Notes under the pieces: model-generated
What the model saw: the letters and a program-made list of their open reading frames with translations, nothing else
What the model was told of the DNA's origin: nothing
Database searches by the model: none
In this document: positions 1 to 62,699 of the stretch, in pieces
Layout: each line of letters starts with the position of its first letter
Numbering within the stretch: the stretch's first letter is position 1
NCBI GenBank assembly: GCA_032718475.1
Contig: JAUCBJ010004986.1
Coordinates: 1 to 64,000 of the forward strand
DNA from: Nemertoderma westbladi
Taxonomy: Eukaryota > Animalia > Xenacoelomorpha
Direction of reading: 5' to 3'
DNA: 64,000 nucleotides
Position numbers and translations under genes: made by a program

Positions 1-3000
1 AACATTGTGTGATCGTGGCGTTTATTTAATCATACAAGTAGGTAGGTAGACAAACATTGTGTGATCGTGGCGTTTATTTAATCATAAGTGGGATAACAAA
101 CATTGTGTGATCGTGGCGTTTATTTAATCATACAAGTGGGTAGACAAACATTGTGTGATCGTGGCGTTTATTTAATCATACAAGTAGGTAGGTAGACAAA
201 CATTGTGTGATGGTGGCGTTTATTTAATCATACAAGTGGGTAGACAAACATTGTGTGATCGTGGCGTTTATTTAATCATAAGTGGGATAACAAACATTGT
301 GTGATCGTGGTGTTTATTTAATCATACAAGTGGGTAGACAAACATTGTGTGATCGTGGCGTTTATTTAATCATACAAGTGGGTAGGTAGACAAACATTGT
401 GTGATCGTGGCGTTTATTTAATCATACAAGTAGGTAGGTAGACAAACATTGTGTGATCGTGGCGTTTATTTAATCATAAGTGGGATAACAAACATTGTGT
501 GATCGTGGTGTTTATTTAATCATACAAGTGGGTAGATAAACATTGTGTGATCGTGGCGTTTATTTAATCATACAAGTGGGTAGGTAGACAAACATTGTGT
601 GATCGTGGCGTTTATTTAATCATAAGTGGGATAACAAACATTGTGTGATCGTGGTGTTTATTTAATCATACAAGTGGGTAGGTAGACAAACATTGTGTGA
701 TCGTGGCGTTTATTTAATCATACAAGTGGGTAGATAAACATTGTGTGATCGTGGCGTTTATTTAATCATACAAGTGGGTAGGTAGACAAACATTGTGTGA
801 TCGTGGCGTTTATTTAATCATACAAGTGGGTAGGTAGACAAACATTGTGTGATCGTGGAGTTTATTTAATCATACAAGTAGGTAGGTAGACAAACATTGT
901 GTGATCGTGGCGTTTATTTAATCATAAGTGGGATAACAAACATTGTGTGATCGTGGTGTTTATTTAATCATACAAGTGGGTAGACAAACATTGTGTGATC
1001 GTGGCGTTTATTTAATCATACAAGTAGGTAGGTAGACAAACATTGTGTGATCGTGGCGTTTATTTAATCATAAGTGGGATAACAAACATTGTGTGATCGT
1101 GGTGTTTATTTAATCATACAAGTGGGTAGGTAGACAAACATTGTGTGATCGTGGCGTTTATTTAATCATACAAGTGGGTAGGTAGACAAACATTGTGTGA
1201 TCGTGGCGTTTATTTAATCATACAAGTGGGTAGATAAACATTGTGTGATCGTGGCGTTTATTTAATCATACAAGTGGGTAGGTAGACAAACATTGTGTGA
1301 TCGTGGCGTTTATTTAATCATACAAGTGGGTAGGTAGACAAACATTGTGTGATCGTGGCGTTTATTTAATCATACAAGTGGGTAGACAAACATTGTGTGA
1401 TCGTGGCGTTTATTTAATCATAAGTGGGATAACAAACATTGTGTGATCGTGGCGTTTATTTAATCATACAAGTGGGTAGGTAGACAAACATTGTGTGATC
1501 GTGGCGTTTATTTAATCATACAAGTGGGTAGGTAGACAAACATTGTGTGATCGTGGCGTTTATTTAATCATACAAGTAGGTAGGTAGACAAACATTGTGT
1601 GATCGTGGCGTTTATTTAATCATACAAGTAGGTAGACAAACATTGTGTGATCGTGGCGTTTATTTAATCATACAAGTGGGTAGGTAGACAAACATTGTGT
1701 GATCGTGGCGTTTATTTAATCATACAAGTAGGTAGGTAGACAAACATTGTGTGATCGTGGCGTTTATTTAATCATACAAGTAGGTAGACAAACATTGTGT
1801 GATCGTGGCGTTTATTTAATCATACAAGTGGGTAGGTAGACAAACATTGTGTGATCGTGGCGTTTATTTAATCATACAAGTGGGTAGGTAGACAAACATT
1901 GTGTGATCGTGGCGTTTATTTAATCATACAAGTGGGTAGGTAGACAAACATTGTGTGATCGTGGTGTTTATTTAATCATAAGTGGGATAACAAACATTGT
2001 GTGATCGTGGTGTTTATTTAATCATACAAGTGGGTAGGTAGACAAACATTGTGTGATCGTGGCGTTTATTTAATCATACAAGTAGGTAGGTAGACAAACA
2101 TTGTGTGATCGTGGCGTTTATTTAATCATAAGTGGGATAACAAACATTGTGTGATCGTGGTGTTTATTTAATCATACAAGTGGGTAGACAAACATTGTGT
2201 GATCGTGGTGTTTATTTAATCATACAAGTAGGTAGACAAACATTGTGTGATCGTGGCGTTTATTTAATCATACAAGTGGGTAGGTAGACAAACATTGTGT
2301 GATCGTGGCGTTTATTTAATCATACAAGTAGGTAGACAAACATTGTGTGATCGTGGCGTTTATTTAATCATACAAGTGGGTAGGTAGACAAACATTGTGT
2401 GATCGTGGCGTTTATTTAATCATACAAGTGGGTAGGTAGACAAACATTGTGTGATCGTGGCGTTTATTTAATCATACAAGTAGGTAGACAAACATTGTGT
2501 GATCGTGGCGTTTATTTAATCATACAAGTGGGTAGGTAGACAAACATTGTGTGATCGTGGCGTTTATTTAATCATACAAGTGGGTAGGTAGACAAACATT
2601 GTGTGATCGTGGCGTTTATTTAATCATACAAGTGGGTAGGTAGACAAACATTGTGTGATCGTGGCGTTTATTTAATCATACAAGTAGGTAGACAAACATT
2701 GTGTGATCGTGGCGTTTATTTAATCATACAAGTAGGTAGACAAACATTGTGTGATCGTGGCGTTTATTTAATCATACAAGTGGGTAGGTAGACAAACATT
2801 GTGTGATCGTGGCGTTTATTTAATCATACAAGTGGGTAGGTAGACAAACATTGTGTGATCGTGGTGTTTATTTAATCATACAAGTGGGTAGGTAGACAAA
2901 CATTGTGTGATCGTGGCGTTTATTTAATCATCAAGTGGGATAACAAACATTGTGTGATCGTGGCGTTTATTTAATCATACAAGTGGGTAGGTAGACAAAC

Positions 3001-6000
3001 ATTGTGTGATCGTGGCGTTTATTTAATCATACAAGTGGGTAGGTAGACAAACATTGTGTGATCGTGGCGTTTATTTAATCATACAAGTGAGTAGGTAGAC
3101 AAACATTGTGTGATCGTGGCGTTTATTTAATCATACAAGTGGGTAGGTAGACAAACATTGTGTGATCGTGGCGTTTATTTAATCATACAAGTGGGTAGGT
3201 AGACAAACATTGTGTGATCGTGGCGTTTATTTAATCATACAAGTGGGTAGGTAGACAAACATTGTGTGATCGTGGCGTTTATTTAATCATAAGTGGGATA
3301 ACAAACATTGTGTGATCGTGGCGTTTATTTAATCATACAAGTGGGTAGGTAGACAAACATTGTGTGATCGTGGCGTTTATTTAATCATACAAGTGGGTAG
3401 GTAGCAAACATTGTGTGATCGTGGCGTTTATTTAATCATACAAGTAGGTAGGTAGACAAACATTGTGTGATCGTGGCGTTTATTTAATCATACAAGTAGG
3501 TAGGTAGACAAACATTGTGTGATCGTGGCGTTTATTTAATCATACAAGTGGGTAGACAAACATTGTGTGATCGTGGCGTTTATTTAATCATACAAGTAGG
3601 TAGGTAGACAAACATTGTGTGATCGTGGCGTTTATTTAATCATAAGTGGGATAACAAACATTGTGTGATCGTGGTGTTTATTTAATCATACAAGTGGGTA
3701 TACAAACATTGTGTGATCGTGGCGTTTATTTAATCATACAAGTAGGTAGGTAGACAAACATTGTGTGATCGTGGCGTTTATTTAATCATAAGTGGGATAA
3801 CAAACATTGTGTGATCGTGGTGTTTATTTAATCATACAAGTGGGTATACAAACATTGTGTGATCGTGGCGTTTATTTAATCATACAAGTAGGTAGGTAGA
3901 CAAACATTGTGTGATCGTGGCGTTTATTTAATCATACAAGTGGGTAGGTAGACAAACATTGTGTGATCGTGGCGTTTATTTAATCATACAAGTGGGTATA
4001 CAAACATTGTGTGATCGTGGCGTTTATTTAATCATACAAGTAGGTAGGTAGACAAACATTGTGTGATCGTGGCGTTTATTTAATCATACAAGTAGGTAGG
4101 TAGACAAACATTGTGTGATCGTGGCGTTTATTTAATCATACAAGTGGGTAGACAAACATTGTGTGATCGTGGCGTTTATTTAATCATACAAGTGGGTAGG
4201 TAGACAAACATTGTGTGATCGTGGCGTTTATTTAATCATACAAGTGGGTAGGTAGACAAACATTGTGTGATCGTGGCGTTTATTTAATCATACAAGTGGG
4301 TAGGTAGACAAACATTGTGTGATCGTGGCGTTTATTTAATCATACAAGTGGGTAGGTAGACAAACATTGTGTGATCGTGGCGTTTATTTAATCATACAAG
4401 TGGGTAGGTAGACAAACATTGTGTGATCGTGGCGTTTATTTAATCATACAAGTGGGTAGGTAGACAAACATTGTGTGATCGTGGCGTTTATTTAATCATA
4501 CAAGTGGGTAGGTAGACAAACATTGTGTGATCGTGGCGTTTATTTAATCATACAAGTGGGTAGACAAACATTGTGTGATCGTGGCGTTTATTTAATCATA
4601 CAAGTGGGTAGGTAGACAAACATTGTGTGATCGTGGCGTTTATTTAATCATACAAGTGGGTAGGTAGACAAACATTGTGTGATCGTGGCGTTTATTTAAT
4701 CATACAAGTGGGTAGGTAGACAAACATTGTGTGATCGTGGCGTTTATTTAATCATACAAGTGGGTAGGTAGACAAACATTGTGTGATCGTGGCGTTTATT
4801 TAATCATACAAGTGGGTAGGTAGACAAACATTGTGTGATCGTGGCGTTTATTTAATCATACAAGTGGGTAGGTAGACAAACATTGTGTGATCGTGGCGTT
4901 TATTTAATCATACAAGTGGGTAGGTAGACAAACATTGTGTGATCGTGGCGTTTATTTAATCATACAAGTGGGTAGGTAGACAAACATTGTGTGATCGTGG
5001 CGTTTATTTAATCATACAAGTGGGTAGGTAGACAAACATTGTGTGATCGTGGCGTTTATTTAATCATACAAGTGGGTAGGTAGACAAACATTGTGTGATC
5101 GTGGCGTTTATTTAATCATACAAGTGGGTAGGTAGACAAACATTGTGTGATCGTGGCGTTTATTTAATCATACAAGTGGGTAGGTAGACAAACATTGTGT
5201 GATCGTGGCGTTTATTTAATCATACAAGTGGGTAGGTAGACAAACATTGTGTGATCGTGGCGTTTATTTAATCATACAAGTGGGTAGGTAGACAAACATT
5301 GTGTGATCGTGGCGTTTATTTAATCATACAAGTGGGTAGGTAGACAAACATTGTGTGATCGTGGCGTTTATTTAATCATACAAGTGGGTAGGTAGACAAA
5401 CATTGTGTGATCGTGGCGTTTATTTAATCATACAAGTGGGTAGGTAGACAAACATTGTGTGATCGTGGCGTTTATTTAATCATACAAGTGGGTAGGTAGA
5501 CAAACATTGTGTGATCGTGGCGTTTATTTAATCATACAAGTGGGTAGGTAGACAAACATTGTGTGATCGTGGCGTTTATTTAATCATACAAGTGGGTAGG
5601 TAGACAAACATTGTGTGATCGTGGCGTTTATTTAATCATACAAGTGGGTAGGTAGACAAACATTGTGTGATCGTGGCGTTTATTTAATCATACAAGTGGG
5701 TAGGTAGACAAACATTGTGTGATCGTGGCGTTTATTTAATCATACAAGTGGGTAGGTAGACAAACATTGTGTGATCGTGGCGTTTATTTAATCATACAAG
5801 TGGGTAGGTAGACAAACATTGTGTGATCGTGGCGTTTATTTAATCATACAAGTGGGTAGGTAGACAAACATTGTGTGATCGTGGCGTTTATTTAATCATA
5901 CAAGTGGGTAGGTAGACAAACATTGTGTGATCGTGGCGTTTATTTAATCATACAAGTGGGTAGGTAGACAAACATTGTGTGATCGTGGCGTTTATTTAAT

Positions 6001-9000
6001 CATACAAGTGGGTAGGTAGACAAACATTGTGTGATCGTGGCGTTTATTTAATCATACAAGTGAGGTAGACAAACATTGTGTGATCGTGGCGTTTATTTAA
6101 TCATACAAGTGGGTAGGTAGACAAACATTGTGTGATCGTGGCGTTTATTTAATCATACAAGTGGGTAGGTAGACAAACATTGTGTGATCGTGGCGTTTAT
6201 TTAATCATACAAGTGGGTAGGTAGACAAACATTGTGTGATCGTGGCGTTTATTTAATCATACAAGTGGGTAGGTAGACAAACATTGTGTGATCGTGGCGT
6301 TTATTTAATCATACAAGTGGGTAGGTAGACAAACATTGTGTGATCGTGGCGTTTATTTAATCATACAAGTGGGTAGGTAGACAAACATTGTGTGATCGTG
6401 GCGTTTATTTAATCATACAAGTGGGTAGACAAACATTGTGTGATCGTGGCGTTTATTTAATCATACAAGTGGGTAGGTAGACAAACATTGTGTGATCGTG
6501 GCGTTTATTTAATCATACAAGTGGGTGGTAGACAAACATTGTGTGATCGTGGCGTTTATTTAATCATACAAGTGGGTAGGTAGACAAACATTGTGTGATC
6601 GTGGCGTTTATTTAATCATACAAGTGGGAGGTAGACAAACATTGTGTGATCGTGGCGTTTATTTAATCATACAAGTGGGTAGGTAGACAAACATTGTGTG
6701 ATCGTGGCGTTTATTTAATCATAAGTGGGATAACAAACATTGTGTGATCGTGGCGTTTATTTAATCATACAAGTGGGTAGGTAGACAAACATTGTGTGAT
6801 CGTGGCGTTTATTTAATCATACAAGTGGGTAGGTAGACAAACATTGTGTGATCGTGGCGTTTATTTAATCATACAAGTGGGATAGACAAACATTGTGTGA
6901 TCGTGGCGTTTATTTAATCATACAAGTGGGTAGTAGACAAACATTGTGTGATCGTGGCGTTTATTTAATCATACAAGTGGGTAGGTAGACAAACATTGTG
7001 TGATCGTGGCGTTTATTTAATCATACAAGTGGGTAGGTAGACAAACATTGTGTGATCGTGGCGTTTATTTAATCATACAAGTGGGTAGGTAGACAAACAT
7101 TGTGTGATCGTGGCGTTTATTTAATCATACAAGTGGGTAGGTAGACAAACATTGTGTGATCGTGGCGTTTATTTAATCATACAAGTGGGTAGGTAGACAA
7201 ACATTGTGTGATCGTGGCGTTTATTTAATCATACAAGTGGGTAGGTAGACAAACATTGTGTGATCGTGGCGTTTATTTAATCATACAAGTGGGTAGGTAG
7301 ACAAACATTGTGTGATCGTGGCGTTTATTTAATCATACAAGTGGGTAGGTAGACAAACATTGTGTGATCGTGGCGTTTATTTAATCATACAAGTGGGTAG
7401 GTAGACAAACATTGTGTGATCGTGGCGTTTATTTAATCATACAAGTGGGTAGGTAGACAAACATTGTGTGATCGTGGCGTTTATTTAATCATACAAGTGG
7501 GTAGGTAGACAAACATTGTGTGATCGTGGCGTTTATTTAATCATACAAGTAGGATAGACAAACATTGTGTGATCGTGGCGTTTATTTAATCATACAAGTG
7601 GGTAGGTAGACAAACATTGTGTGATCGTGGCGTTTATTTAATCATACAAGTGGGTAGGTAGACAAACATTGTGTGATCGTGGCGTTTATTTAATCATACA
7701 AGTGGGTAGGTAGACAAACATTGTGTGATCGTGGCGTTTATTTAATCATACAAGTGGGTAGGTAGACAAACATTGTGTGATCGTGGCGTTTATTTAATCA
7801 TACAAGTGGGTAGGTAGACAAACATTGTGTGATCGTGGCGTTTATTTAATCATACAAGTGGGTAGGTAGACAAACATTGTGTGATCGTGGCGTTTATTTA
7901 ATCATACAAGTGGGTAGACAAACATTGTGTGATCGTGGCGTTTATTTAATCATACAAGTGGGTAGGTAGACAAACATTGTGTGATCGTGGCGTTTATTTA
8001 ATCATACAAGTGGGTAGACAAACATTGTGTGATCGTGGCGTTTATTTAATCATACAAGTGGGTAGGTAGACAAACATTGTGTGATCGTGGCGTTTATTTA
8101 ATCATACAAGTGGGTAGACAAACATTGTGTGATCGTGGCGTTTATTTAATCATACAAGTGGGTAGGTAGACAAACATTGTGTGATCGTGGCGTTTATTTA
8201 ATCATACAAGTGGGTAGACAAACATTGTGTGATCGTGGCGTTTATTTAATCATACAAGTGGGTAGACAAACATTGTGTGATCGTGGCGTTTATTTAATCA
8301 TACAAGTGGGTAGGTAGACAAACATTGTGTGATCGTGGCGTTTATTTAATCATACAAGTGGGTAGACAAACATTGTGTGATCGTGGCGTTTATTTAATCA
8401 TACAAGTGGGTAGGTAGACAAACATTGTGTGATCGTGGCGTTTATTTAATCATACAAGTGGGTAGACAAACATTGTGTGATCGTGGCGTTTATTTAATCA
8501 TACAAGTGGGTAGACAAACATTGTGTGATCGTGGCGTTTATTTAATCATACAAGTGGGTAGACAAACATTGTGTGATCGTGGCGTTTATTTAATCATACA
8601 AGTGAGGTAGACAAACATTGTGTGATCGTGGCGTTTATTTAATCATACAAGTGGGTAGGTAGACAAACATTGTGTGATCGTGGCGTTTATTTAATCATAC
8701 AAGTGGGTAGGTAGACAAACATTGTGTGATCGTGGCGTTTATTTAATCATACAAGTAGGTAGACAAACATTGTGTGATCGTGGCGTTTATTTAATCATAC
8801 AAGTAGGTAGACAAACATTGTGTGATCGTGGCGTTTATTTAATCATACAAGTGGGTAGACAAACATTGTGTGATCGTGGCGTTTATTTAATCATACAAGT
8901 GGGTAGGTAGACAAACATTGTGTGATCGTGGCGTTTATTTAATCATACAAGTGGGTAGACAAACATTGTGTGATCGTGGCGTTTATTTAATCATACAAGT

Positions 9001-12000
9001 GGGTAGACAAACATTGTGTGATCGTGGCGTTTATTTAATCATACAAGTAGGTAGGTAGACAAACATTGTGTGATCGTGGCGTTTATTTAATCATACAAGG
9101 TAGGTAGACAAACATTGTGTGATCGTGGCGTTTATTTAATCATACAAGTGGGTAGACAAACATTGTGTGATCGTGGCGTTTATTTAATCATACAAGTGGG
9201 TAGGTAGACAAACATTGTGTGATCGTGGCGTTTATTTAATCATACAAGTGGGTAGACAAACATTGTGTGATCGTGGCGTTTATTTAATCATACAAGTGGG
9301 TAGGTAGACAAACATTGTGTGATCGTGGCGTTTATTTAATCATACAAGTGGGTAGGTAGACAAACATTGTGTGATCGTGGCGTTTATTTAATCATACAAG
9401 TGGGTAGGTAGACAAACATTGTGTGATCGTGGCGTTTATTTAATCATACAAGTGGGTAGGTAGACAAACATTGTGTGATCGTGGCGTTTATTTAATCATA
9501 CAAGTGGGTAGACAAACATTGTGTGATCGTGGCGTTTATTTAATCATACAAGTGGGTAGGTAGACAAACATTGTGTGATCGTGGCGTTTATTTAATCATA
9601 CAAGTGGGTAGGTAGACAAACATTGTGTGATCGTGGCGTTTATTTAATCATAAGTGGGATAACAAACATTGTGTGATCGTGGCGTTTATTTAATCATACA
9701 AGTGGGTAGGTAGACAAACATTGTGTGATCGTGGCGTTTATTTAATCATACAAGTGGGTAGGTAGACAAACATTGTGTGATCGTGGCGTTTATTTAATCA
9801 TACAAGTGGGTAGGTAGACAAACATTGTGTGATCGTGGCGTTTATTTAATCATACAAGTGGGTAGGTAGACAAACATTGTGTGATCGTGGCGTTTATTTA
9901 ATCATACAAGTGGGTAGACAAACATTGTGTGATCGTGGCGTTTATTTAATCATACAAGTGGGTAGGTAGACAAACATTGTGTGATCGTGGCGTTTATTTA
10001 ATCATACAAGTGGGTAGGTAGACAAACATTGTGTGATCGTGGCGTTTATTTAATCATACAAGTGGGTAGGTAGACAAACATTGTGTGATCGTGGCGTTTA
10101 TTTAATCATACAAGTGGGAGTAGACAAACATTGTGTGATCGTGGCGTTTATTTAATCATACAAGTGGGTAGGTAGACAAACATTGTGTGATCGTGGCGTT
10201 TATTTAATCATACAAGTGGGTAGGTAGACAAACATTGTGTGATCGTGGCGTTTATTTAATCATACAAGTGGGTAGGTAGACAAACATTGTGTGATCGTGG
10301 CGTTTATTTAATCATACAAGTGGGTAGGTAGACAAACATTGTGTGATCGTGGCGTTTATTTAATCATACAAGTGGGTAGGTAGACAAACATTGTGTGATC
10401 GTGGCGTTTATTTAATCATACAAGTGGGTAGGTAGACAAACATTGTGTGATCGTGGCGTTTATTTAATCATACAAGTGGGTAGGTAGACAAACATTGTGT
10501 GATCGTGGCGTTTATTTAATCATACAAGTGGGTAGGTAGACAAACATTGTGTGATCGTGGCGTTTATTTAATCATACAAGTGGGTAGGTAGACAAACATT
10601 GTGTGATCGTGGCGTTTATTTAATCATACAAGTGGGTAGGTAGACAAACATTGTGTGATCGTGGCGTTTATTTAATCATACAAGTGGGTAGGTAGACAAA
10701 CATTGTGTGATCGTGGCGTTTATTTAATCATACAAGTGGGTAGGTAGACAAACATTGTGTGATCGTGGCGTTTATTTAATCATACAAGTGGGTAGGTAGA
10801 CAAACATTGTGTGATCGTGGCGTTTATTTAATCATACAAGTGGTAGGTAGACAAACATTGTGTGATCGTGGCGTTTATTTAATCATACAAGTGGGTAGGT
10901 AGACAAACATTGTGTGATCGTGGCGTTTATTTAATCATACAAGTGGGTAGGTAGACAAACATTGTGTGATCGTGGCGTTTATTTAATCATACAAGTGGGT
11001 AGGTAGACAAACATTGTGTGATCGTGGCGTTTATTTAATCATACAAGTGGGTAGGTAGACAAACATTGTGTGATCGTGGCGTTTATTTAATCATACAAGT
11101 GGGTAGGTAGACAAACATTGTGTGATCGTGGCGTTTATTTAATCATACAAGTGGGTAGGTAGACAAACATTGTGTGATCGTGGCGTTTATTTAATCATAC
11201 AAGTGGGTAGGTAGACAAACATTGTGTGATCGTGGCGTTTATTTAATCATACAAGTGGGTAGGTAGACAAACATTGTGTGATCGTGGCGTTTATTTAATC
11301 ATACAAGTGGGTAGGTAGACAAACATTGTGTGATCGTGGCGTTTATTTAATCATACAAGTGGGTAGGTAGACAAACATTGTGTGATCGTGGCGTTTATTT
11401 AATCATACAAGTGGGTAGGTAGACAAACATTGTGTGATCGTGGCGTTTATTTAATCATACAAGTGGGTAGGTAGACAAACATTGTGTGATCGTGGCGTTT
11501 ATTTAATCATACAAGTGGGTAGACAAACATTGTGTGATCGTGGCGTTTATTTAATCATACAAGTGGGTAGACAAACATTGTGTGATCGTGGCGTTTATTT
11601 AATCATACAAGTGAGGTAGACAAACATTGTGTGATCGTGGCGTTTATTTAATCATACAAGTGGGTAGGTAGACAAACATTGTGTGATCGTGGCGTTTATT
11701 TAATCATACAAGTGGGTAGACAAACATTGTGTGATCGTGGCGTTTATTTAATCATACAAGTGGGTAGGTAGACAAACATTGTGTGATCGTGGCGTTTATT
11801 TAATCATACAAGTGGGTAGACAAACATTGTGTGATCGTGGCGTTTATTTAATCATACAAGTGTGGTAGACAAACATTGTGTGATCGTGGCGTTTATTTAA
11901 TCATACAAGTGGTGTAGACAAACATTGTGTGATCGTGGCGTTTATTTAATCATACAAGTGGGTAGACAAACATTGTGTGATCGTGGCGTTTATTTAATCA

Positions 12001-15000
12001 TACAAGTGGGTAGACAAACATTGTGTGATCGTGGCGTTTATTTAATCATACAAGTGGGTAGACAAACATTGTGTGATCGTGGCGTTTATTTAATCATACA
12101 AGTAGGTAGACAAACATTGTGTGATCGTGGCGTTTATTTAATCATACAAGTAGGTAGGTAGACAAACATTGTGTGATCGTGGCGTTTATTTAATCATACA
12201 AGTGGGTAGGTAGACAAACATTGTGTGATCGTGGCGTTTATTTAATCATACAAGTGGGTAGACAAACATTGTGTGATCGTGGCGTTTATTTAATCATACA
12301 AGTAGGTAGGTAGACAAACATTGTGTGATCGTGGCGTTTATTTAATCATACAAGTGGGTAGACAAACATTGTGTGATCGTGGCGTTTATTTAATCATACA
12401 AGTGGGTAGACAAACATTGTGTGATCGTGGCGTTTATTTAATCATACAAGTGGGTAGGTAGACAAACATTGTGTGATCGTGGCGTTTATTTAATCATACA
12501 AGTGGGTAGGTAGACAAACATTGTGTGATCGTGGCGTTTATTTAATCATACAAGTGGGTAGGTAGACAAACATTGTGTGATCGTGGCGTTTATTTAATCA
12601 TACAAGTGGGTAGACAAACATTGTGTGATCGTGGCGTTTATTTAATCATACAAGTGGGTAGGTAGACAAACATTGTGTGATCGTGGCGTTTATTTAATCA
12701 TACAAGTGGGTAGGTAGACAAACATTGTGTGATCGTGGCGTTTATTTAATCATACAAGGTAGGATAGACAAACATTGTGTGATCGTGGCGTTTATTTAAT
12801 CATACAAGTGGGTAGGTAGACAAACATTGTGTGATCGTGGCGTTTATTTAATCATACAAGTGGGTAGGTAGACAAACATTGTGTGATCGTGGCGTTTATT
12901 TAATCATACAAGTGGGTAGGTAGACAAACATTGTGTGATCGTGGCGTTTATTTAATCATACAAGTGGGTAGGTAGACAAACATTGTGTGATCGTGGCGTT
13001 TATTTAATCATACAAGTGGGTAGACAAACATTGTGTGATCGTGGCGTTTATTTAATCATACAAGTGGGTAGGTAGACAAACATTGTGTGATCGTGGCGTT
13101 TATTTAATCATACAAGTGGGTAGGTAGACAAACATTGTGTGATCGTGGCGTTTATTTAATCATACAAGTGGGTAGGTAGACAAACATTGTGTGATCGTGG
13201 CGTTTATTTAATCATAAGTAGGATAACAAACATTGTGTGATCGTGGTGTTTATTTAATCATACAAGTAGGTAGACAAACATTGTGTGATCGTGGCGTTTA
13301 TTTAATCATAAAAGTGGGTAGGTAGACAAACATTGTGTGATCGTGGCGTTTATTTAATCATACAAGTGGGTAGGTAGACAAACATTGTGTGATCGTGGCG
13401 TTTATTTAATCATACAAGTGGGTAGGTAGACAAACATTGTGTGATCGTGGCGTTTATTTAATCATACAAGTGGGTAGGTAGACAAACATTGTGTGATCGT
13501 GGCGTTTATTTAATCATACAAGTAGGTAGGTAGACAAACATTGTGTGATCGTGTCGTTTATTTAATCATACAAGTGGGTAGGTAGACAAACATTGTGTGA
13601 TCGTGGCGTTTATTTAATCATACAAGTGGGTAGGTAGACAAACATTGTGTGATCGTGGCGTTTATTTAATCATACAAGTGGGTAGGTAGACAAACATTGT
13701 GTGATCGTGGCGTTTATTTAATCATACAAGTGGGTAGGTAGACAAACATTGTGTGATCGTGGCGTTTATTTAATCATACAAGTGGGTAGGTAGACAAACA
13801 TTGTGTGATCGTGGCGTTTATTTAATCATACAAGTGGGTAGGTAGACAAACATTGTGTGATCGTGGCGTTTATTTAATCATAAGTAGGATAACAAACATT
13901 GTGTGATCGTGGTGTTTATTTAATCATACAAGTGGGTAGGTAGACAAACATTGTGTGATCGCGGCGTTTATTTAATCATACAAGTGGGTAGGTAGACAAA
14001 CATTGTGTGATCGTGGCGTTTATTTAATCATACAAGTGGGTAGGTAGACAAACATTGTGTGATCGTGGCGTTTATTTAATCATACAAGTGGGTAGGTAGA
14101 CAAACATTGTGTGATCGTGGCGTTTATTTAATCATACAAGTGGGTAGGTAGACAAACATTGTGTGATCGTGGCGTTTATTTAATCATACAAGTGGGTAGG
14201 TAGACAAACATTGTGTGATCGTGGCGTTTATTTAATCATACAAGTGGGTAGGTAGACAAACATTGTGTGATCGTAGCGTTTATTTAATCATACAAGTGGG
14301 TAGGTAGACAAACATTGTGTGATCGTGGCGTTTATTTAATCATACAAGTGGGTAGGTAGACAAACATTGTGTGATCGTGGCGTTTATTTAATCATACAAG
14401 TGGGTAGGTAGACAAACATTGTGTGATCGTGGCGTTTATTTAATCATACAAGTGGGTAGGTAGACAAACATTGTGTGATCGTGGCGTTTATTTAATCATA
14501 CAAGTGGGTAGGTAGACAAACATTGTGTGATCGTGGCGTTTATTTAATCATAAGTAGGATAACAAACATTGTGTGATCGTGGTGTTTATTTAATCATACA
14601 AGTGGGTAGGTAGACAAACATTGTGTGATCGTGGCGTTTATTTATTCATACAAGTGGGTAGGTAGACAAACATTGTGTGATCGTGGCATTTATTTAATCA
14701 TACAAGTGGGTAGGTAGACAAACATTGTGTGATCGTGGCGTTTATTTAATCATACAAGTGGGTAGGTAGACAAACATTGTGTGATCGTGGCGTTTATTTA
14801 ATCATACAAGTGGGTAGGTAGACAAACATTGTGTGATCGTGGCGTTTATTTAATCATACAAGTGGGTAGGTAGACAAACATTGTGTGATCGTAGCGTTTA
14901 TTTAATCATACAAGTGGGTAGGTAGACAAACATTGTGTGATCGTGGCGTTTATTTAATCATACAAGTGGGTAGGTAGACAAACATTGTGTGATCGTGGCG

Positions 15001-17332
15001 TTTATTTAATCATACAAGTGGGTAGGTAGACAAACATTGTGTGATCGTGGCGTTTATTTAATCATACAAGTGGGTAGGTAGACAAACATTGTGTGATCGT
15101 AGCGTTTATTTAATCATACAAGTGGGTAGGTAGACAAACATTGTGTGATCGTGGCGTTTATTTAATCATACAAGTGGGTAGGTAGACAAACATTGTGTGA
15201 TCGTGGCGTTTATTTAATCATACAAGTGGGTAGGTAGACAAACATTGTGTGATCGTAGCGTTTATTTAATCATACAAGTGGGTAGGTAGACAAACATTGT
15301 GTGATCGTGGCGTTTATTTAATCATACAAGTGGGTAGGTAGACAAACATTGTGTGATCGTGGCGTTTATTTAATCATACAAGTGGGATAACAAACATTGT
15401 GTGATCGCGGCGTTTATTTAATCATACAAGTAGGTAGACAAACATTGTGTGATCGTGGCGTTTATTTAATCATACAAGTGGGTAGACAAACATTGTGTGA
15501 TCGTGGCGTTTATTTAATCATACAAGTAGGATAACAAACATTGTGTGATCGTGGCGTTTATTTAATCATACAAGTGGGTAGACAAACATTGTGTGATCGT
15601 GGCGTTTATTTAATCATACAAGTAGGTAGACAAACATTGTGTGATCGTGGCGTTTATTTAATCATAAAAGTGGGTAGGTAGACAAACATTGTGTGATCGT
15701 GGCGTTTATTTAATCATACAAGTGGGTAGGTAGACAAACATTGTGTGATCGTGGCGTTTATTTAATCATACAAGTAGGATAACAAACATTGTGTGATCGT
15801 GGCGTTTATTTAATCATAAAAGTGGGTAGGTAGACAAACATTGTGTGATCGTGGCGTTTATTTAATCATACAAGTAGGTAGACAAACATTGTGTGATCGT
15901 GGCGTTTATTTAATCATACAAGTAGGTAGACAAACATTGTGTGATCGTGGCGTTTATTTAATCATACAAGTAGGTAGACAAACATTGTGTGATCGTGGCG
16001 TTTATTTAATCATAAAAGTGGGTAGGTAGACAAACATTGTGTGATCGTGGCGTTTATTTAATCATACAAGTGGGTAGGTAGACAAACATTGTGTGATCGT
16101 GGCGTTTATTTAATCATACAAGTAGGATAACAAACATTGTGTGATCGTGGCGTTTATTTAATCATAAAAGTGGGTAGGTAGACAAACATTGTGTGATCGT
16201 GGCGTTTATTTAATCATACAAGTGGGTAGGTAGACAAACATTGTGTGATCGTGGCGTTTATTTAATCATACAAGTGGGATAACAAACATTGTGTGATCGC
16301 GGCGTTTATTTAATCATACAAGTAGGTAGACAAACATTGTGTGATCGTGGCGTTTATTTAATCATAAAAGTGGGTAGGTAGACAAACATTGTGTGATCGT
16401 GGCGTTTATTTAATCATACAAGTGGGTAGGTAGACAAACATTGTGTGATCGTGGCGTTTATTTAATCATACAAGTAGGATAACAAACATTGTGTGATCGT
16501 GGCGTTTATTTAATCATAAGTGGGATAACAAACATTGTGTGATCGTGGCGTTTATTTAATCATACAAGTGGGTAGGTAGACAAACATTGTGTGATCGTGG
16601 CGTTTATTTAATCATACAAGTTGGTAGACAAACATTGTGTGATCGTGGCGTTTATTTAATCATACAAGTGGGTAGGTAGACAAACATTGTGTGATCGTGG
16701 CGTTTATTTAATCATACAAGTGGGTAGGTAGACAAACATTGTGTGATCGTGGCGTTTATTTAATCATACAAGTAGGATAACAAACATTGTGTGATCGTGG
16801 CGTTTATTTAATCATAAAAGTGGGTAGGTAGACAAACATTGTGTGATCGTGGCGTTTATTTAATCATACAAGTGGGTAGGTAGACAAACATTGTGTGATC
16901 GTGGCGTTTATTTAATCATACAAGTGGGTAGGTAGACAAACATTGTGTGATCGTGGCGTTTATTTAATCATACAAGTGGGTAGGTAGACAAACATTGTGT
17001 GATCGTGGCGTTTATTTAATCATACAAGTGGGTAGGTAGACAAACATTGTGTGATCGTGGCGTTTATTTAATCATACAAGTGGGTAGGTAGACAAACATT
17101 GTGTGATCGTGGCGTTTATTTAATCATACAAGTGGGTAGGTAGACAAACATTGTGTGATCGTGGCGTTTATTTAATCATACAAGTGGGTAGGTAGACAAA
17201 CATTGTGTGATCGTGGCGTTTATTTAATCATACAAGTGGGTAGGTAGACAAACATTGTGTGATCGTGGCGTTTATTTAATCATACAAGTGGGTAGGTAGA
17301 CAAACATTGTGTGATCGTGGCGTTTATTTAAT
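1..17332 (+). repeat. 52-bp satellite array, segment 1 (roughly 340 units; 52/48/46-bp variants); extends beyond the window start
   Basis: Uninterrupted tandem copies of caaacattgtgtgatcgtggcgtttatttaatcatacaagtgggtaggtaga. Variants lose one 4-nt (taggt/ggta) slip (48 bp) or read cataagtgggataa (46 bp). Confidence 0.98.
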
Positions 17333-17420
17333 TAATAATAAATTACCATAAGCAAAATATAGCATATAGGTAAGTATTAGGGGTCTACACTGGCTGAATA
17401 TTGTAATGAAAACGCTGGAT

Positions 17421-17460
17421 TTAGTGAACGTTTTCGCCCTACCGGGCTACGTCAGACCTA
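17421..17460 (-). ncRNA. Minimal type I hammerhead-ribozyme-like motif in the PLE 3' end
   Basis: Minus strand reads UAGGU-CUGAC-GUA-GCCC-GGUA-GGGC-GAAA-ACGU-UC-ACUAA: CUGA and GAAA boxes, 4-bp stem II, palindromic AACGUU in place of stem III, UC cleavage site. Extra U in the CUGANGA box and a weak stem I. Confidence 0.55.
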
Positions 17461-17798
17461 TTATATTAATAAAGCATAATGGAGTAATTAAATTCAATTC
17501 GAAATTCCCGCCACCTAAATAAAGCACTAATAGAATAGATAGTTCTAAGTAGGTCCTATATGTAATATAATATAAACAAAGTCGAAAACAAAATCAAAAA
17601 ACAAAAGTCTCCAGAATAAAATAGATTTTTATCCAAACTTACATAAAGTAAAAATCTAATCGTGTCTCTAAGTAGCTCTCGTACTATTATTATAAAAACA
17701 AAAACCTCCAAACGCTCAGTTTCAACTCCGTATAACAAGTAAGGTAATATACAGTCAAACACACATTAGCAACCCCCATATGCGTACTATCCATTCCC

Positions 17799-20700
17799 AA
17801 AAACATTCAATATGCGCGCTGCTCGTTAAATAAGTTAGGTTAAAGTTAGGTTAATGAATAGGTCTAACTGTAGATTATGCAATGTATAAGTTTAAGTTCA
17901 AAAAATAAGTAATATTGAAAATAATGTATAAAACAACAGATGAAGACAAACCAAAAACATTCAATATGCGCGCTGCCCGTTAAGTAAGTTAGGTTAAAGT
18001 TAGGTTAATGAATAAGTCTAACTGTAGATTATGCAATGTATAAGTTTAAGTTCAAAAAATAAGTAATATTGAAAATAATGTATAAAACAACAGATGAAGA
18101 CAAACCAAAAACATTCAAAATGCGCGCTGCTCCTTAAGTAAGTTAGATTAAGGTTAGGTTAATGAATAAGTCTAACTGTAGATTATGCAATGTATAAGTT
18201 TAAGTTCGAAAAATAAGTAATATTGAAAATAATGCATAAAACTACAGATTAAGACAAACCAAAAAACATTCAATATGCGCGCTGCTCGTTAAGTAAGTTA
18301 GGTTAATGAATAAGTCTAACTGTAGATTATGCAATGTATAAGTTTAAGTTCAGAAAATAAGTAATATTGAAAATAATGCATAAAACAACAGATTAAGACA
18401 AACCAAAAACATTAAATATGCGCGCTGCCCGTTAAGTAAGTTAGGTTAAAGTTAGGTTAATGAATAAGTCTAACTGTAGATTATGCAATGTATAAGTTTA
18501 AGTTCGAAAAATAGGTAATATTGAAAATAATGCATAAAACAACCGATTAAGGCAAACCAAAAACATTCAATATGCGTGCTGCTCGTTAAGTAAGTTAGGT
18601 TAATGAATAAGTCTAACTGTAGATTATGCAATGTATAAGTTTAAGTTCGAAAAATAAGTAATATTGAAAATAATGCATAAAACAACAGATTAAGACAAAC
18701 CAAAAACATTCAATATGCGCGCTGCTCGTTAAGTAAGTTAGGTTAAATTTAGGTTAATGAATAAGTCTAACTGTAGATTATGCAATGTATAAGTTTAAGT
18801 TCAAAAAATAAGTAATATTGAAAATAATGTATAAAACAACAGATGAAGACAAACCAAAAACATTCAAAATGCGCGCTGCTCCTTAAGTAAGTTAGATTAA
18901 GGTTAGGTTAATGAATAAGTCTAACTGTAGATTATGCAATGTATAAGTTTAAGTTCAAAAAATAAGTAATATTGAAAATAATGTATAAAACAACAGATGA
19001 AGACAAACCAAAAACATTCAATATGCGCGCTGCCCGTTAAGTAAGTTAGGTTAAAGTTAGGTTAATGAATAAGTCTAACTGTAGATTATGCAATGTATAA
19101 GTTTAAGTTCAAAAAATAAGTAATATTGAAAATAATGTATAAAACAACAGATGAAGACAAACCAAAAACATTCAAAATGCGCGCTGCTCCTTAAGTAAGT
19201 TAGTTTAAAGTTAGGTTAATGAATAAGTCTAACTGTAGATTATGCAATGTATAAGTTTAAGTTCAAAAAATAAGTAATATTGAAAATAATGTATAAAACA
19301 ACAGATGAAGACAAACCAAAAACATTAAATATGCGCGCTGCTCCTTAAGTAAGTTAGATTAAGGTTAGGTTAATGAATAAGTCTAACTGTAGATTATGCA
19401 ATGTATAAGTTTAAGTTCAAAAAATAAGTAATATTGAAAATAATGTATAAAACAACAGATGAAGACAAACCAAAAACATTAAATATGCGCGCTGCTCCTT
19501 AAGTAAGTTAGATTAAGGTTAGGTTAATGAATAAGTCTAACTGTAGATTATGCAATGTATAAGTTTAAGTTCAAAAAATAAGTAATATTGAAAATAATGT
19601 ATAAAACAACAGATGAAGACAAACCAAAAACATTAAATATGCGCGCTGCTCCTTAAGTAAGTTAGAATTAAATATGCGCGCTGCCCGTTAAGTAAGTTAG
19701 GTTAAAGTTAGGTTAATGAATAAGTCTAACTGTAGATTATGCAATGTATAAGTTTAAGTTCGAAAAATAGGTAATATTGAAAATAATGCATAAAACAACA
19801 GATTAAGACAAACCAAAAACATTCAATATGCGTGCTGCTCGTTAAGTAAGTTAGGTTAATGAATAAGTCTAACTGTAGATTATGCAATGTATAAGTTTAA
19901 GTTCGAAAAATAAGTAATATTGAAAATAATGCATAAAACAACAGATTAAGACAAACCAAAAACATTCAATATGCGCGCTGCTCGTTAAGTAAGTTAGGTT
20001 AAATTTAGGTTAATGAATAAGTCTAACTGTAGATTATGCAATGTATAAGTTTAAGTTCAAAAAAAAAAAAAGTAATATTGAAAATAATGCATAAAACAAC
20101 AGATTAAGACAAACCAAAAACATTCAATATGCGCGCTGCTCGTTACGTAAGTTAGGTTAACATTCAATATGCGCGCTGTTCGTTAAGTAAGTTAGGTTAA
20201 AGTTAGGTTAATGAATAAGTCTAACTGTAGATTATGCAATGTATAAGTTTAAGTTCAAAAAAAAAAAATAAGTAATATTGAAAATAATGCATAAAACAAC
20301 AGATTAAGACAAACCAAAAACATTCAATATGCGGGCTGCTCGTTAAGTAAGTTAGGTTAAAGTTAGGTTAATGAATAAGTCTAACTGTAGATTATGCAAT
20401 GTATAAGTTTAAGTTCAAAAAAAAAAATAAGTAATATTGAAAATAATGCATAAAACAACAGATTAAGACAAACCAAAAACATTCAATATGCGCGCTGCTC
20501 GTTAAGTAAGTTTGGTTAAATTTAGGTTAATGAATAAGTCTAACTGTAGATTATGCAATGTATAAGTTTAAGTTCAGAAAATAAGTAATATTGAAAATAA
20601 TGCATAAAACAACAGATTAAGACAAACCAAAAACATTCAATATGCGCGCTGCTCGTTAAGTAAGTTAGTTTAACATTCAATATGTGCGCTGCTCGTTAAG

Positions 20701-21960
20701 TAAGTTAGGTTAACATTCAATATGCGCGCTGCTCGTTAAGTAAGTTAGGTTAAAGTTAGGTTAATGAATAAGTCTAACTGTAGATTATGCAATGTATAAG
20801 TTTAAGTTCAGAAAATAAGTAATATTGAAAATAATGCATAAAACAACAGATTAAGACAAACCAAAAACATTCAATATGCGCGCTGCTCGTTAAGTAAGTT
20901 AGTTTAACATTCAATATGTGCGCTGCTCGTTAAGTAAGTTAGGTTAAAGTTAGGTTAATGAATAAGTCTAACTGTAGATTATGCAATGTATAAGTTTAAG
21001 TTCAAAAAAATAAGTAATATTGAAAATAATGCATAAAACAACAGATTAAGACAAACCAAAAACATTCAATATGCGCGCTGCTCGTTAAGTAAGTTAGGTT
21101 AAAGTTAGGTTAATGAAAAAGTCTAACTGTAGATTATGCAATGTATAAGTTTAAGTTCAAAAAATAAGTAATATTGAAAATAATGCATGAAACAACAGAT
21201 TAAGACAAACCAAAAACATTCAATATGTGCGCTGCTCGTTAAGTAAGTTAGGTTCAAGTTAGGTTAATGAATAAGTCTAACTGTAGATTATGCAATGTAT
21301 AAGTTTAAGTTCAAAAAATAAGTAATATTGAAAATAATGCATGAAACACCAGATTAAGACAAACCAAAAACATTCAATATGCGCGCTGCTCGTTAAGTAA
21401 GTTAGGTTAACATTCAATATGCGCGCTGCTCGTTAAGTAAGTTAGGTTAAAGTTAGGTTAATGAATAAGTCTAACTGTAGATTATGCAATGTATAAGTTT
21501 AAGTTCAAAAAATAAGTAATATTGAAAATAATGCATGAAACAACAGATTAAGACAAACCAAAAACATTCAATATGTGCGCTGCTCGTTAAGTAAGTTAGG
21601 TTAAAGTTAGGTTAATGAATAAGTCTAACTGTAGATTATGCAATGTATAAGTTTAAGTTCAAAAAATAAGTAATATTGAAAATAATGTATAAAACAACAG
21701 ATTAAGGCAAACCAAAAATATTCAATATGCGCGCTGCTCGTTACGTAAGTTAGATTAAGGTTAGGTTAATGAATAAGTCTAACTGTAGATTATGCAATGT
21801 ATAAGTTTAAGTTCAAAAAATAAGTATTATTGAAACTCACGCACAAAACAACAGACCAAGGCAAACCAAAAAAAAAAAAAACACGAAACATGCGCGCTGA
21901 TCGTTAAGTAGGTTAGGTTAATGAATAAGTCTAACTGTAGGTTATGTAATAAGTTTAAGT
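17799..21960. repeat. ~154-bp tandem array (about 27 units, with ~143-bp variants and 40-bp sub-duplications) inside the PLE 3' region
   Basis: Unit aaaaacattcaatatgcgcgctgctcgttaagtaagttagg...gacaaacc starts at 17799, 17953 and 18107 (period 154). Confidence 0.95.
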
Positions 21961-40800: not shown

Positions 40801-43800
40801 TACAAGTGGGTAGACAAACATTGTGTGATCGTGGCGTTTATTTAATCATAAGTGGGATAACAAACATTGTGTGATCGTGGTGTTTATTTAATCATACAAG
40901 TGGGTAGGTAGACAAACATTGTGTGATCATGGCGTTTATTTAATCATACAAGGGGGTAGACAAACATTGTGTGATCGTGGTGGTTATTTACTCATACAAG
41001 TGGGTAGACAAACATTGTGTGATCGTGGTGTTTATTTAATCATACAAGTGGGTAGACAAACATTGTGTGATCGTGGCGTTTATTTACTCATACAAGTGGG
41101 TAGGTAGACAAACATTGTGTGATCATGGCGTTTATTTAATCATACAAGTGGGTAGACAAACATTGTGTGATCGTGGCGTTTATTTACTCATACAAGTGGG
41201 TAGACAAACATTGTGTGATCGTGGTGTTTATTTACTCATACAAGTGGGTAGACAAACATTGTGTGATCGTGGTGTTTATTTAATCATACAAGTGGGTAGG
41301 TAGACAAACATTGTGTGATCATGGCGTTTATTTAATCATACAAGTGGGTAGACAAACATTGTGTGATCGTGGCGTTTATTTACTCATACAAGTGGGTAGA
41401 CAAACATTGTGTGATCGTGGCGTTTATTTAATCATACAAGTGGGTAGGTAGACAAACATTGTGTGATCATGGCGTTTATTTAATCATACAAGTGGGTAGA
41501 CAAACATTGTGTGATCGTGGCGTTTATTTACTCATACAAGTGGGTAGACAAACATTGTGTGATCGTGGTGTTTATTTAATCATACAAGTGGGTAGGTAGA
41601 CAAACATTGTGTGATCATGGCGTTTATTTAATCATACAAGTGGGTAGACAAACATTGTGTGATCGTGGCGTTTATTTACTCATACAAGTGGGTAGACAAA
41701 CATTGTGTGATCGTGGCGTTTATTTAATCATAAGTGGGATAACAAACATTGTGTGATCGTGGCGTTTATTTAATCATACAAGTAGGATAACAAACATTGT
41801 GTGATCGTGGTGTTTATTTAATCATACAAGTGGGTAGGTAGACAAACATTGTGTGATCGTGGCGTTTATTTAATCATACACGTGGGTAGGTAGACAAACA
41901 TTGTGTGATCGTGGCGTTTATTTAATCATAAGTAGGATAACAAACATTGTGTGATCGTGGCGTTTATTTAATCATACAAGTGGGTAGGTAGACAAACATT
42001 GTGTGATCGTGGCGTTTATTTAATCATACAAGTGGGTAGTTAGACAAACATTGTGTGATCGTGGCGTTTATTTAATCATAAGTAGGATAACAAACATTGT
42101 GTGATCGTGGCGTTTATTTAATCATACAAGTGGGTAGACAAACATTGTGTGATCGTGGTGTTTATTTAATCATACAAGTAGGTAGACAAACATTGTGTGA
42201 TCGTGGCGTTTATTTAATCATACAAGTAGGTAGGTAGACAAACATTGTGTGATCGTGGCGTTTATTTAATCATACAAGTAGGTAGACAAACATTGTGTGA
42301 TCGTGGCGTTTATTTAATCATACAAGTGGGTAGTTAGACAAACATTGTGTGATCGTGGCGTTTATTTAATCATACAAGTAGGTAGACAAACATTGTGTGA
42401 TCGTGGCGTTTATTTAATCATACAAGTGGGTAGTTAGACAAACATTGTGTGATCGTGGCGTTTATTTAATCATACAAGTGGGTAGGTAGTCAAACATTGT
42501 GTGATCGTGGCGTTTATTTAATCATACAAGTGGGTAGGTAGACAAACATTGTGTGATCGTGGCGTTTATTTAATCATACAAGTAGGTAGGTAGACAAACA
42601 TTGTGTGATCGTGGCGTTTATTTAATCATACAAGTGGGTAGGTAGTCAAACATTGTGTGATCGTGGCGTTTATTTAATCATACAAGTGGGTAGACAAACA
42701 TTGTGTGATCGTGGCGTTTATTTAATCATACAAGTGGGTAGTTAGACAAACATTGTGTGATCGTGGCGTTTATTTAATCATAAGTAGGATAACAAACATT
42801 GTGTGATCGTGGCGTTTATTTAATCATACAAGTGGGTAGACAAACATTGTGTGATCGTGGTGTTTATTTAATCATACAAGTAGGTAGACAAACATTGTGT
42901 GATCGTGGCGTTTATTTAATCATACAAGTAGGTAGGTAGACAAACATTGTGTGATCGTGGCGTTTATTTAATCATACAAGTAGGTAGACAAACATTGTGT
43001 GATCGTGGCGTTTATTTAATCATACAAGTGGGTAGTTAGACAAACATTGTGTGATCGTGGCGTTTATTTAATCATACAAGTAGGTAGACAAACATTGTGT
43101 GATCGTGGCGTTTATTTAATCATACAAGTGGGTAGGTAGACAAACATTGTGTGATCGTGGCGTTTATTTAATCATACAAGTGGGTAGACAAACATTGTGT
43201 GATCGTGGCGTTTATTTAATCATACAAGTGGGTAGGTAGACAAACATTGTGTGATCGTGGCGTTTATTTAATCATACAAGTGGGTAGACAAACATTGTGT
43301 GATCGTGGCGTTTATTTAATCATACAAGTGGGTAGACAAACATTGTGTGATCGTGGCGTTTATTTAATCATACAAGTGGGTAGACAAACATTGTGTGATC
43401 GTGGTGTTTATTTAATCATACAAGTGGGTAGGTAGACAAACATTGTGTGATCGTGGCGTTTATTTAATCATACAAGTGGGTAGACAAACATTGTGTGATC
43501 GTGGCGTTTATTTAATCATACAAGTGGGTAGGTAGATAAACATTGTGTGATCGTGGCGTTTATTTAATCATACAAGTGGGTAGGTAGACAAACATTGTGT
43601 GATCGTGGCGTTTATTTAATCATACAAGTGGGTAGACAAACATTGTGTGATCGTGGCGTTTATTTATTCATACAAGTGGGTAGACAAACATTGTGTGATC
43701 GTGGCGTTTATTTAATCATACAAGTGGGTAGGTAGACAAACATTGTGTGATCGTGGCGTTTATTTAATCATACAAGTGGGTAGGTAGACAAACATTGTGT

Positions 43801-49431: not shown

Positions 49432-51051
49432 GGGGGGGGGGGGTTCACTCCCCTTGGAGAGGAATCGGCATATCGGATGCCTGATGTTCCCACATCATCC
49501 ATTTTCTCCAATTTTTTGCACGTTAACCAAGGACATGTGTGTCTTCAATGTCATGATAAAAAAATTTCAGATATTTGATAATCAGACTATGATATTGATT
49601 GATTGATTGGAAATATCGATTGATTTATTGATTGATTAGTTAAATGCTTATAACATTTTACCACATGCATATTTTTGAAAAGTTTTTTTTTATTTTAAAA
49701 GCAGCCGCCTATATGTGTAAAACTTGTAGACAGATTTCCGAAATTTGGTCCAGTTAAAATTTTATTGGCATAATTACACCACTATTGGAAATTAATATCG
49801 CATATTTTCCAATATTTCGTCGATTTTGTGATTGGCACCTTATAACTTGGGAGAGAATCTAAATTTCGAAAATCTGTCTACAACTTATGAAAAGTAACAT
49901 GTCTAGAAGACTGAAACCAAATTTCAGACAAAAAGGTGGAAGATTGACTGAGTTATAAGGTTTTGGAGATGAGGAAAGCCTGAAAAATAAAAAGTCGAGA
50001 AAAACTCAAAAATAGATACAAAATAGCATGACATTTTTTTTTTGATTTTTTTTTCATTTTTTTTTGAATTTGGTTCAAAAAAAACCCTACCCACTTTTAA
50101 CAACCTGTTAAAATAATTTTAGAGTGCTTGCCAAAAAACACTTCGCGCAGCACGTGAACAAATTACATTTTGGCGTATTGATGTGATCGCATACTATTTC
50201 GTCATTTAGTAATAAATAGTCATGGAATAATGAGACAACCTTAAGAAACATTCAAAATTATATAAAAATCTCCACATAATTTTATAATAAGCCTTTACAC
50301 AGAACATTAAGCTTTGCGCAGCACGTGAAACCTTCGCGCAGCACGTGAGACATTTGCGCAGCAGGTGAAGGTTTCACGTAGAACTTAAATTCTTCATAAA
50401 GCACGTTAATTAATCGAGCACCTCGGGAAGCTTTTTGATCAGAATGAGAAGCCTTCACGCGGCACATGAAAAGTTCATGCTGCACATGAAGACTTCGCGC
50501 AGCACGTGAATTATTATCAGAGCCTGCGGAATTAAAAAAAAATAAGTTTATGGTTGTTTCCCAGAATAATTATTACTAGCTATTGTTATATGATGGTTCA
50601 CATTTGTTATTACTAGTAGACAACTAGTCCATTAGACAACTGTTCAATATGTAATACAAAACTCACAAATATCTATTAAATATATATTAATTAAAATTTG
50701 ACGGACATGTTGACAGACAGACAGACATACAAACAGACAGACAAACTGAGAGACAGACTGAGATACAGACATAGTGATTAGATAATTCCAAATATTAAAA
50801 CAGACATCGACATTAAGAAAAATCCTAACAGTAAACATTTCAGATTGCTTATTTTATGCCCTTTTTAATATTTCGATGGACAGACAGACAGACATACAGA
50901 CGGAAAACCAGCCATTACTCGAGAAGTAAAAGAGATCTCGCTAAGCCGTTTCCAGATTTGAAATCCGCATTAAATTCTACTCTAGATGAAATAAAAAAAC
51001 AAAAAATGAAAATTTTGACCTGAGGGGGGGTGTACCCCCCCCCCCCCCCCC
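49432..51051. mobile_element. Non-autonomous TIR DNA transposon (~1.6 kb), TTAA TSD, Kolobok-like
   Basis: ttaa at 49428-49431 and 51052-51055, and the satellite unit resumes in register. Termini poly-G-ttcactcccc and ggggggtgta-poly-C form imperfect inverted repeats. TTAA TSD with 5' purine termini fits Kolobok rather than piggyBac. No transposase ORF. Confidence 0.75.
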
Positions 51052-51213
51052 TTAATCATACAAGTGGGTAGGTAGACAAACATTGTGTGATCGTGGCGTT
51101 TATTTATTCATACAAGTGGGTAGGTAGACAAACATTGTGTGATCGTGGTGTTTATTTATTCATACAAGTGGGTAGGTAGACAAACATTGTGTGATCGTGG
51201 CGAGTAGGTAGAC
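51052..51213 (+). repeat. 52-bp satellite, terminal ~3 units, grading into unique intron
   Basis: Ends ...gatcgtggcgagtaggtagaccaaccaacattatttcg. Confidence 0.92.
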
Positions 51214-62640: not shown

Positions 62641-62699
62641 TGCGTAGAACATAGTCAACAACAATTATGAACAAGAATGGTGCAAGTGTGTCTCCTGGG

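Follow-up and report, generated by a model that had tools for sequence, protein, structure and literature searches.

How can a gene be spliced correctly when one of its introns carries the gene's own 5' splice junction in hundreds of copies? This question is raised by a locus of Nemertoderma westbladi (GenBank assembly GCA_032718475.1, contig JAUCBJ010004986.1, positions 1 to 64,000 of the forward strand; this whole stretch of 64,000 nt is denoted as the window). Its first 51 kb consist mostly of a tandem array with a 52-bp unit, located in an intron of a putative membrane protein gene. As the array continues beyond the window on its 5' side, the totals given here for the 52-bp unit are lower bounds for the locus. 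Comparison of the unit with a spliced contig, described below, revealed that it is composed of the 17 nt that end an exon and the 35 nt that start the following intron (GTGGGT/GTAGGT). We consider it quite probable that the repeat represents these last 17 bases of the exon and the GT signal, copied about 870 times, that no extra unit enters the RNA, and that the array is likely neutral, being tolerated as the first donor wins.

A count across the window yielded 868 unit anchors with 96 distinct unit sequences. Phasing on the exon tail resulted in 870 units, whose length is 52 nt in 557 cases, 48 nt in 196, and 46 nt in 96, the other 21 differing from these, in agreement with the roughly 870 tandem donor copies claimed in a preliminary description made from the sequence alone. 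The 975.6 copies reported by Tandem Repeats Finder are an overcount, as this call runs across the larger insert within the array. The 17-nt exon tail is exact in 716 units and is followed by GTGGGT or GTAGGT in 673 of them, so that the YLIIQ-encoding end stands directly before a donor, as had been described. GT follows the tail directly in 770 of the 774 units with a full tail, and it occupies the donor place (offset 15-18) in at least 862 of the 870 phased units, i.e. the donor is reiterated head to tail. Its strength is middling, with 6 of 9 consensus positions matched (the gene's other three sites match 8, 5, and 8), and each common unit harbors a second donor-like site (TGG/GTAGGT), also with a 6/9 match. 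The array is homogeneous: 398 of 553 units of 52 nt are identical to the commonest one, the mean being 0.31 differences per unit, and the frequencies of the variant units drift with the position along the array. Runs of the 48-nt unit at 11901-12161 and 41040-41303 form short open frames repeating VGRQTLCDRGVYLIIQ; with this variant, splicing from a later donor would leave the reading frame intact.

Evidence on splicing comes from public sequencing runs with matching sequence (denoted X1 to X4), none of which is on record as RNA; X3 is labelled 'DNA?'. Among the contigs aligned to 51070-52010, X3 contains a single contig of 1,621 nt that covers only exon A (51385-51543, plus strand) and exon B (51751-51985, plus strand) of the host gene and skips 51544-51750 as a GT..AG intron. 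On a NAPRT gene nested further downstream, a poly(T) tail is present in X3 at 54236, and at 56385 there is a primer-like tail, which we take to be a template-switching primer. Due to the exon-only contig with its GT..AG skip and the two tails on NAPRT, X3 is treated as cDNA, and it behaves as such. The loose end of its contig before 51385 reads GKDDIYLIIQ (...GATATTTATTTAATCATACAA) and is joined straight to GYDI; on the nucleotide level, the joint connects the unit end ...ATCATACAA to GGATACGAC at 51385. Transcripts consequently contain the junction to 51385 that had been predicted, and the exon at this position starts with GYDI, as formerly proposed, and follows a pyrimidine-rich CAG. The main mRNA, represented by this one contig, uses the first donor and contains no extra 52-bp unit. 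X3 contigs over 51070-51200, a stretch of 52-bp units, were blank, which carries no evidential weight.

The loose end also defines how much of the unit is exonic. Its final 17 nt match the 17 nt that precede GTGGGT in the unit in 17 of 17 positions (the probability of a 17-nt match to a 52-nt unit arising by chance, both strands considered, is about 7e-8), and the next 13 nt upstream match in 3 of 13 positions, which is the chance level. The exonic part is therefore restricted to 17 nt. One frame of the unit translates into TLCDRGVYLIIQVGR followed by a stop (...CDRGVYLIIQ, then GT), and the preliminary description had regarded this as the end of the upstream exon. This holds for the 17 nt (the end of an I codon plus YLIIQ) but not for CDRGV, which is intronic; the exon ends with GKDDIYLIIQ. 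With this correction of the exon end, the earlier interpretation is supported. The G of CDRGV had also been considered as part of the TIG 'GGT' motif; this was dropped, as the RNA places it in the intron and the fit arose by chance. The 3' end of the array (51202, ...GTGGCG) coincides exactly with the exon/intron phase boundary defined by the RNA, and since the array stops at this same boundary, a polymorphism in X3 is disfavored as the cause of the difference between exon and unit. A search of both strands of the window did not find the exon-specific 13 nt upstream of the 17-mer. The true upstream exon thus lies outside the window, as had been stated before for its 5' side.

DNA contigs from X1 and X2 tie the 3' end of the array to unique sequence (51173-51580 and 51175-51986, respectively). 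In both runs, which originate from two studies, the repeat depth is about 1000-fold over unique DNA, and this high depth supports a real, large array. Within the window, array DNA accounts for 44,066 of the 51,384 intron bases (86%). The claim of an intron of more than 51 kb made up almost entirely of amplified junction is hence correct with respect to its bulk, but the array is not continuous: two insertions (17333-22847, 5.5 kb, and 49432-51051, 1,620 bp) divide it into a first block (1-17332, plus strand, off the window at the 5' end, with 52-, 48-, and 46-nt variants), a second block (22848-49431, plus strand), and three final units (51052-51202, plus strand), whose end coincides exactly with that of the intron part. 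The larger insertion, on the minus strand, is flanked by a 10-nt target-site duplication (17323-17332 and 22848-22857), contains a tandem repeat of about 154 bp extending over about 4 kb in total, and encodes a GIY-YIG open reading frame (ORF; 22104-22856, minus strand; PF01541, E 1.5e-07). Based on this domain we presume it to be Penelope-like; a reverse transcriptase ORF was not present among its listed ORFs of at least 80 aa. The smaller one resembles a non-autonomous DNA transposon (no strand assigned) with flanking TTAA duplications and poly-G/poly-C inverted ends, is perhaps Kolobok-like by our assumption, and sits in the exon-derived TTAA of one 52-bp unit.

The same gene shows a second amplified donor. 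Exon A (53 codons, GYDI...KSVQ, phase 0-0) is followed by the 207-nt GT-AG intron at 51544-51750 (plus strand), whose joint is seen in X3 and whose unamplified donor serves as an internal control. At the end of exon B (phase 0-1), an array with a 42-bp unit extends over 51967-54191 (plus strand). Each unit combines 19 nt from the end of exon B with 23 nt of intron (GTGAGT), and the first monomer overlaps the real exon end, starting 19 nt inside exon B. The array comprises 53 copies of the ACA/GTGAGT unit, 52 of which retain an intact donor; the depth of a ring contig of this unit in X1 corresponds to about 56 copies, compared with the 53 assembled. The X3 contig leaves exon B at the first donor of this array and enters an exon starting with (N)LVIDVESPM, which is absent from the window. 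The 42-bp array is in frame and stop-free, forming an open frame of 823 codons (51721-54192). If a later donor were used or the intron retained, the cytoplasmic tail would be lengthened by repeats of 14 residues, and the array could thereby give rise to receptors with cytoplasmic tails of variable length. A ring contig of tandem 42-bp units is also found in the cDNA-like X3. It holds no strand information and would fit an origin from unspliced RNA, from the use of later donors, or from NAPRT read-through.

Both arrays whose 3' ends are visible have a homogeneous interior and a divergent copy at the edge. Downstream of the 52-bp array, 51203-51238 (plus strand) holds an older copy of the intron half of the unit in decayed form, from which the exon tail has been lost (16 of 2000 shuffles reach its score), in line with the similarity to the intron half noted in the preliminary description. 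Behind the 42-bp array, 54195-54243 (plus strand) preserves the exon B junction as an older, decayed copy with its donor lost (2 of 2000 shuffles). At the unamplified control donor at 51544, 807 of 2000 shuffles reached the score, i.e. no decayed copy is present. As decayed junction copies follow both complete arrays and none is found at the unamplified donor, these two cases suggest that both donors were amplified more than once. A third array may exist at the 3' end of the window, where a candidate 18-nt in-frame microexon (63853-63870, plus strand) with a good acceptor is preceded by AG and followed by GTAAGT, and where at least four copies of a 35-bp unit with CCG/GTAAGT (63859-64000, plus strand) run off the window. 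Since the main X3 contig skips the microexon, this array is regarded as a candidate; the contigs listed for 54150-63930, a stretch crowded by transposon contigs, contained nothing of the microexon.

The anatomy of the 52-bp unit, the RNA junction, and the lack of a unit in the main mRNA contig were observed directly; as to the origin of the array, the selection of its donor, and its neutrality, we infer the following course. The array would begin at the actual exon, 5' of the window, and would have arisen from a small tandem duplication over the donor junction. It may then have been enlarged by slippage or unequal exchange in at least two rounds, leaving the decayed copy at the 3' side, and two transposon insertions were presumably collected over time. 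The first donor would be chosen since it alone closes an exon of normal size defined from the upstream acceptor, and since it is transcribed first, which would correspond to the oriented scanning shown for F7. The copies are not expected to bring an acceptor of their own; the 52-bp units contain no AATAAA and no YAG preceded by pyrimidines at 9 or more of 12 positions. Rare use of a later donor would mostly lead to a frameshift or stop and to degradation of the transcript, as 710 of the 867 donor-to-donor steps introduce one or the other. Several observations weigh against this explanation. The remaining 157 of 867 steps, mostly involving 48-nt units, are in frame and stop-free, and some alternative donors could therefore yield protein. 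The RNA basis consists of a single contig, obtained from one run of a different sample, and as contigs drop minor isoforms, use of later donors at a low level is possible. None of the DNA contigs listed bridges the exon and the first unit, which is uninformative given an expected overlap of about 30 nt and an aligned stretch with a variant unit. The depth of the 52-bp repeat in X1 ranges from 814- to 3,612-fold by position, and these are summed depths rather than copy numbers. In X2, a depth of about 20,000 compares with 20.5 for unique DNA, but X4, from the same sample, gives about 254 versus 3-4; as the ratio in X4 is far below that in X2, run depths are rough.

Could the donor arrays serve as a regulatory device? 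Transcription of the intron might be slowed or protected by hundreds of U1-binding sites, or later donors might be used at a tuned rate, with the 52-bp array leading to nonsense-mediated decay and the in-frame 42-bp array to a longer cytoplasmic tail. Such a function would agree with the near-complete retention of GT at the donor place and with the second donor-like site of the common unit, but the units are young and homogeneous, so that retention of GT requires no selection. Likewise, the 42-bp array is open across its 53 units and its ring contig appears in the cDNA-like X3; a 14-codon unit is, however, fairly often stop-free by chance, and the strandless ring may reflect RNA that is still unspliced or NAPRT transcripts that read through their poly(A) site, which is 44 nt away. 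As the main X3 contig moreover uses the first donor at both arrays, we regard a regulatory role as unlikely.

A different concern is whether the amplified sequence was a splice junction at all when it entered the locus, or whether its present position and size are as assembled. A satellite may have invaded the intron and its GT may have been adopted as donor, in which case the end of the exon would be satellite-derived. The 5' edge of the 52-bp array and any ortholog are unseen, the shared stretch is only 17 nt long, and there is no microhomology between the unit junction and the exon, all of which leaves room for this order of events. Against it, the 17 nt in common code for a hydrophobic strand right before the G that opens the TIG match, a strand pattern that recurs in the nine-TIG protein P0001; the 42-bp array of the same gene clearly begins inside an exon; and the depth in X1 (several hundred up to a few thousand) is comparable in magnitude to the locus itself rather than to a genome-wide satellite, although this estimate is rough. 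An origin from a satellite therefore appears extremely improbable. The array might also be junction-derived but detached from its exon by unique intron or transposon DNA, or it might be a shorter array expanded by the assembly. It leaves the window, has already received two insertions, and is spanned by no read. Its 96 distinct units with position-dependent variants, however, are unlike a collapsed or copied contig, and the X1 and X2 contigs link its 3' end to unique sequence at a depth about 1000-fold over unique DNA, so a detached or mis-sized array is very unlikely. Amplification of the gene's own junction with use of the first donor is thus the preferred explanation. A further-reaching proposal holds that 5' splice junctions of this lineage are recurrent hotspots of tandem amplification, coupled to transcription or splicing, and even a main driver of intron size. 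It is suggested by two confirmed arrays and one candidate array on four donors seen in one gene, by the older round at the same spot at both visible 3' ends, and by the satellite scale of one array; we consider it a tentative and rather doubtful idea.

Judged from its predicted domains, the host gene would encode an IPT-type single-pass membrane protein. Exon A is IPT/TIG-like; it matched the TIG profile with an E value of 0.0073, below the curated cut-off of Pfam, with its first residue near profile position 21. In a library search, the better of two matches was P0001 (E 6e-09 summed over nine stretches), and the second, the FG-GAP repeat protein P0002, was set aside as spurious. Atlas leads pointed to IPT/TIG (scores up to 0.88). 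A homolog search with exon A gave 8 candidates, none at E values up to 10, and a search of solved structures gave five matches without significance, with the HGF receptor chain reaching only E 1.2. Exon B contains the end of the ectodomain, a transmembrane-like segment, and a basic stop-transfer run, the segment being called by inspection (a hydrophobic run followed by basic residues). The preliminary description had compared the junction with the IPT domains of MET and plexins. What the window offers for such an identity is an IPT-like stretch plus a transmembrane-like segment, and a gene of the MET/RON or plexin type is plausible rather than demonstrated. Exons for Sema and PSI domains upstream, and for a kinase (MET) or split GAP (plexin) downstream, would be located beyond the window.

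Downstream of the 42-bp array, an intronless NAPRT gene is nested in the intron on the minus strand (54236-56385), with an intact ORF of 541 aa (56153-54528). It is transcribed, and its poly(A) site borders the array as mentioned. The 120 matches listed for its product are mostly animal proteins, mostly with 58-63% identity across several phyla and none close; the gene is possibly a retro-derived or intron-stripped copy. Nested LINE fragments occupy 57400-63700 and are of very high copy number as estimated by contig depth. They include a minus-strand element with endonuclease and reverse transcriptase (58164-61482), split by an RTE-like piece (58756-59346), and a further RTE-like copy at 62671-63656.

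Minisatellites spanning a donor have been described before. The preliminary description had emphasized that the spliceosome must select one donor among hundreds; the main mRNA indeed picks one, but the situation as such is already known. According to the parts of the source accessible here, intron 7 of human F7 carries a variable number tandem repeat (VNTR) of 37 bp with 5-9 units, and splicing there is restricted to the most upstream donor, even in constructs with up to 12 units (PMC1557585). The same excerpts cite 6-16, CBS, LAMIN B2, and PDGF as further cases with about 10-25 units, and report additional use of the next two donors for 6-16 and CBS (PMC1557585). The F7 repeat resembles the Nemertoderma array in that the unit consists of exon end and intron start, the donor is reiterated in the intron, and the most upstream donor is used. 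It differs, as far as those excerpts go, by its 5-9 units with 4 exon nt each, whereas the present array spans 44 kb, has at least 870 units with 17 exon nt each, and contains transposon insertions. In amphioxus, 'mirage' minisatellites were found at exon-intron boundaries of Adh3 and globin genes, where regular splicing is undisturbed and boundary units escape homogenization (PMC3087553, in the portions available). They likewise represent tandem duplications at boundaries in an invertebrate, at several loci, with a concerted interior and divergent edge units, but the globin clusters described there comprise 3-6 units, and the Nemertoderma array is two orders of magnitude longer.

Gigantic introns of Drosophila reach megabase scale and contain simple satellites unrelated to the gene's own junction. 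In the accessible parts of a study on Y-linked genes, such introns are described as filled with satellites (PMC11207136); they share with the present intron a bulk of tandem repeats and a splicing process that copes with long repetitive nascent RNA, and differ from it in that the repeat here is the gene's own junction. A model of Rogers, known here as cited in an excerpt of PMC3087553, explains intron gain by tandem duplication of an AG/GT proto-splice site. The likeness lies in the tandem duplication with splice-like signals, the 52-bp unit holding AG/GT. Creation of an intron in this manner was rejected, as the used acceptor (51384) is located in unique DNA, 182 nt past the array, and does not derive from the last unit; due to this position of the acceptor, the array is considered to have enlarged an existing intron rather than to have formed a new one. 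A survey of open-licence PMC and bioRxiv literature retrieved no published array of hundreds of donors; its coverage is incomplete, and absence is not implied.

The class of elements is thus already published, as donor-spanning minisatellites are known from F7 and the amphioxus mirages, and a function of the array is only proposed. What is new here is the size and the recurrence within one gene. A known oddity, otherwise counted in tens of copies, here reaches at least 870, with the main mRNA seen still on the first donor, and this supports the view that donor choice by a first-come or exon-definition principle is very robust. The locus also provides a natural extreme case in which the leak to later donors and the loading of U1 on nascent RNA can be gauged. 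If donor arrays turned out to be enriched across the genome of N. westbladi, this would point to a mutational process linked to splice sites that inflates introns.

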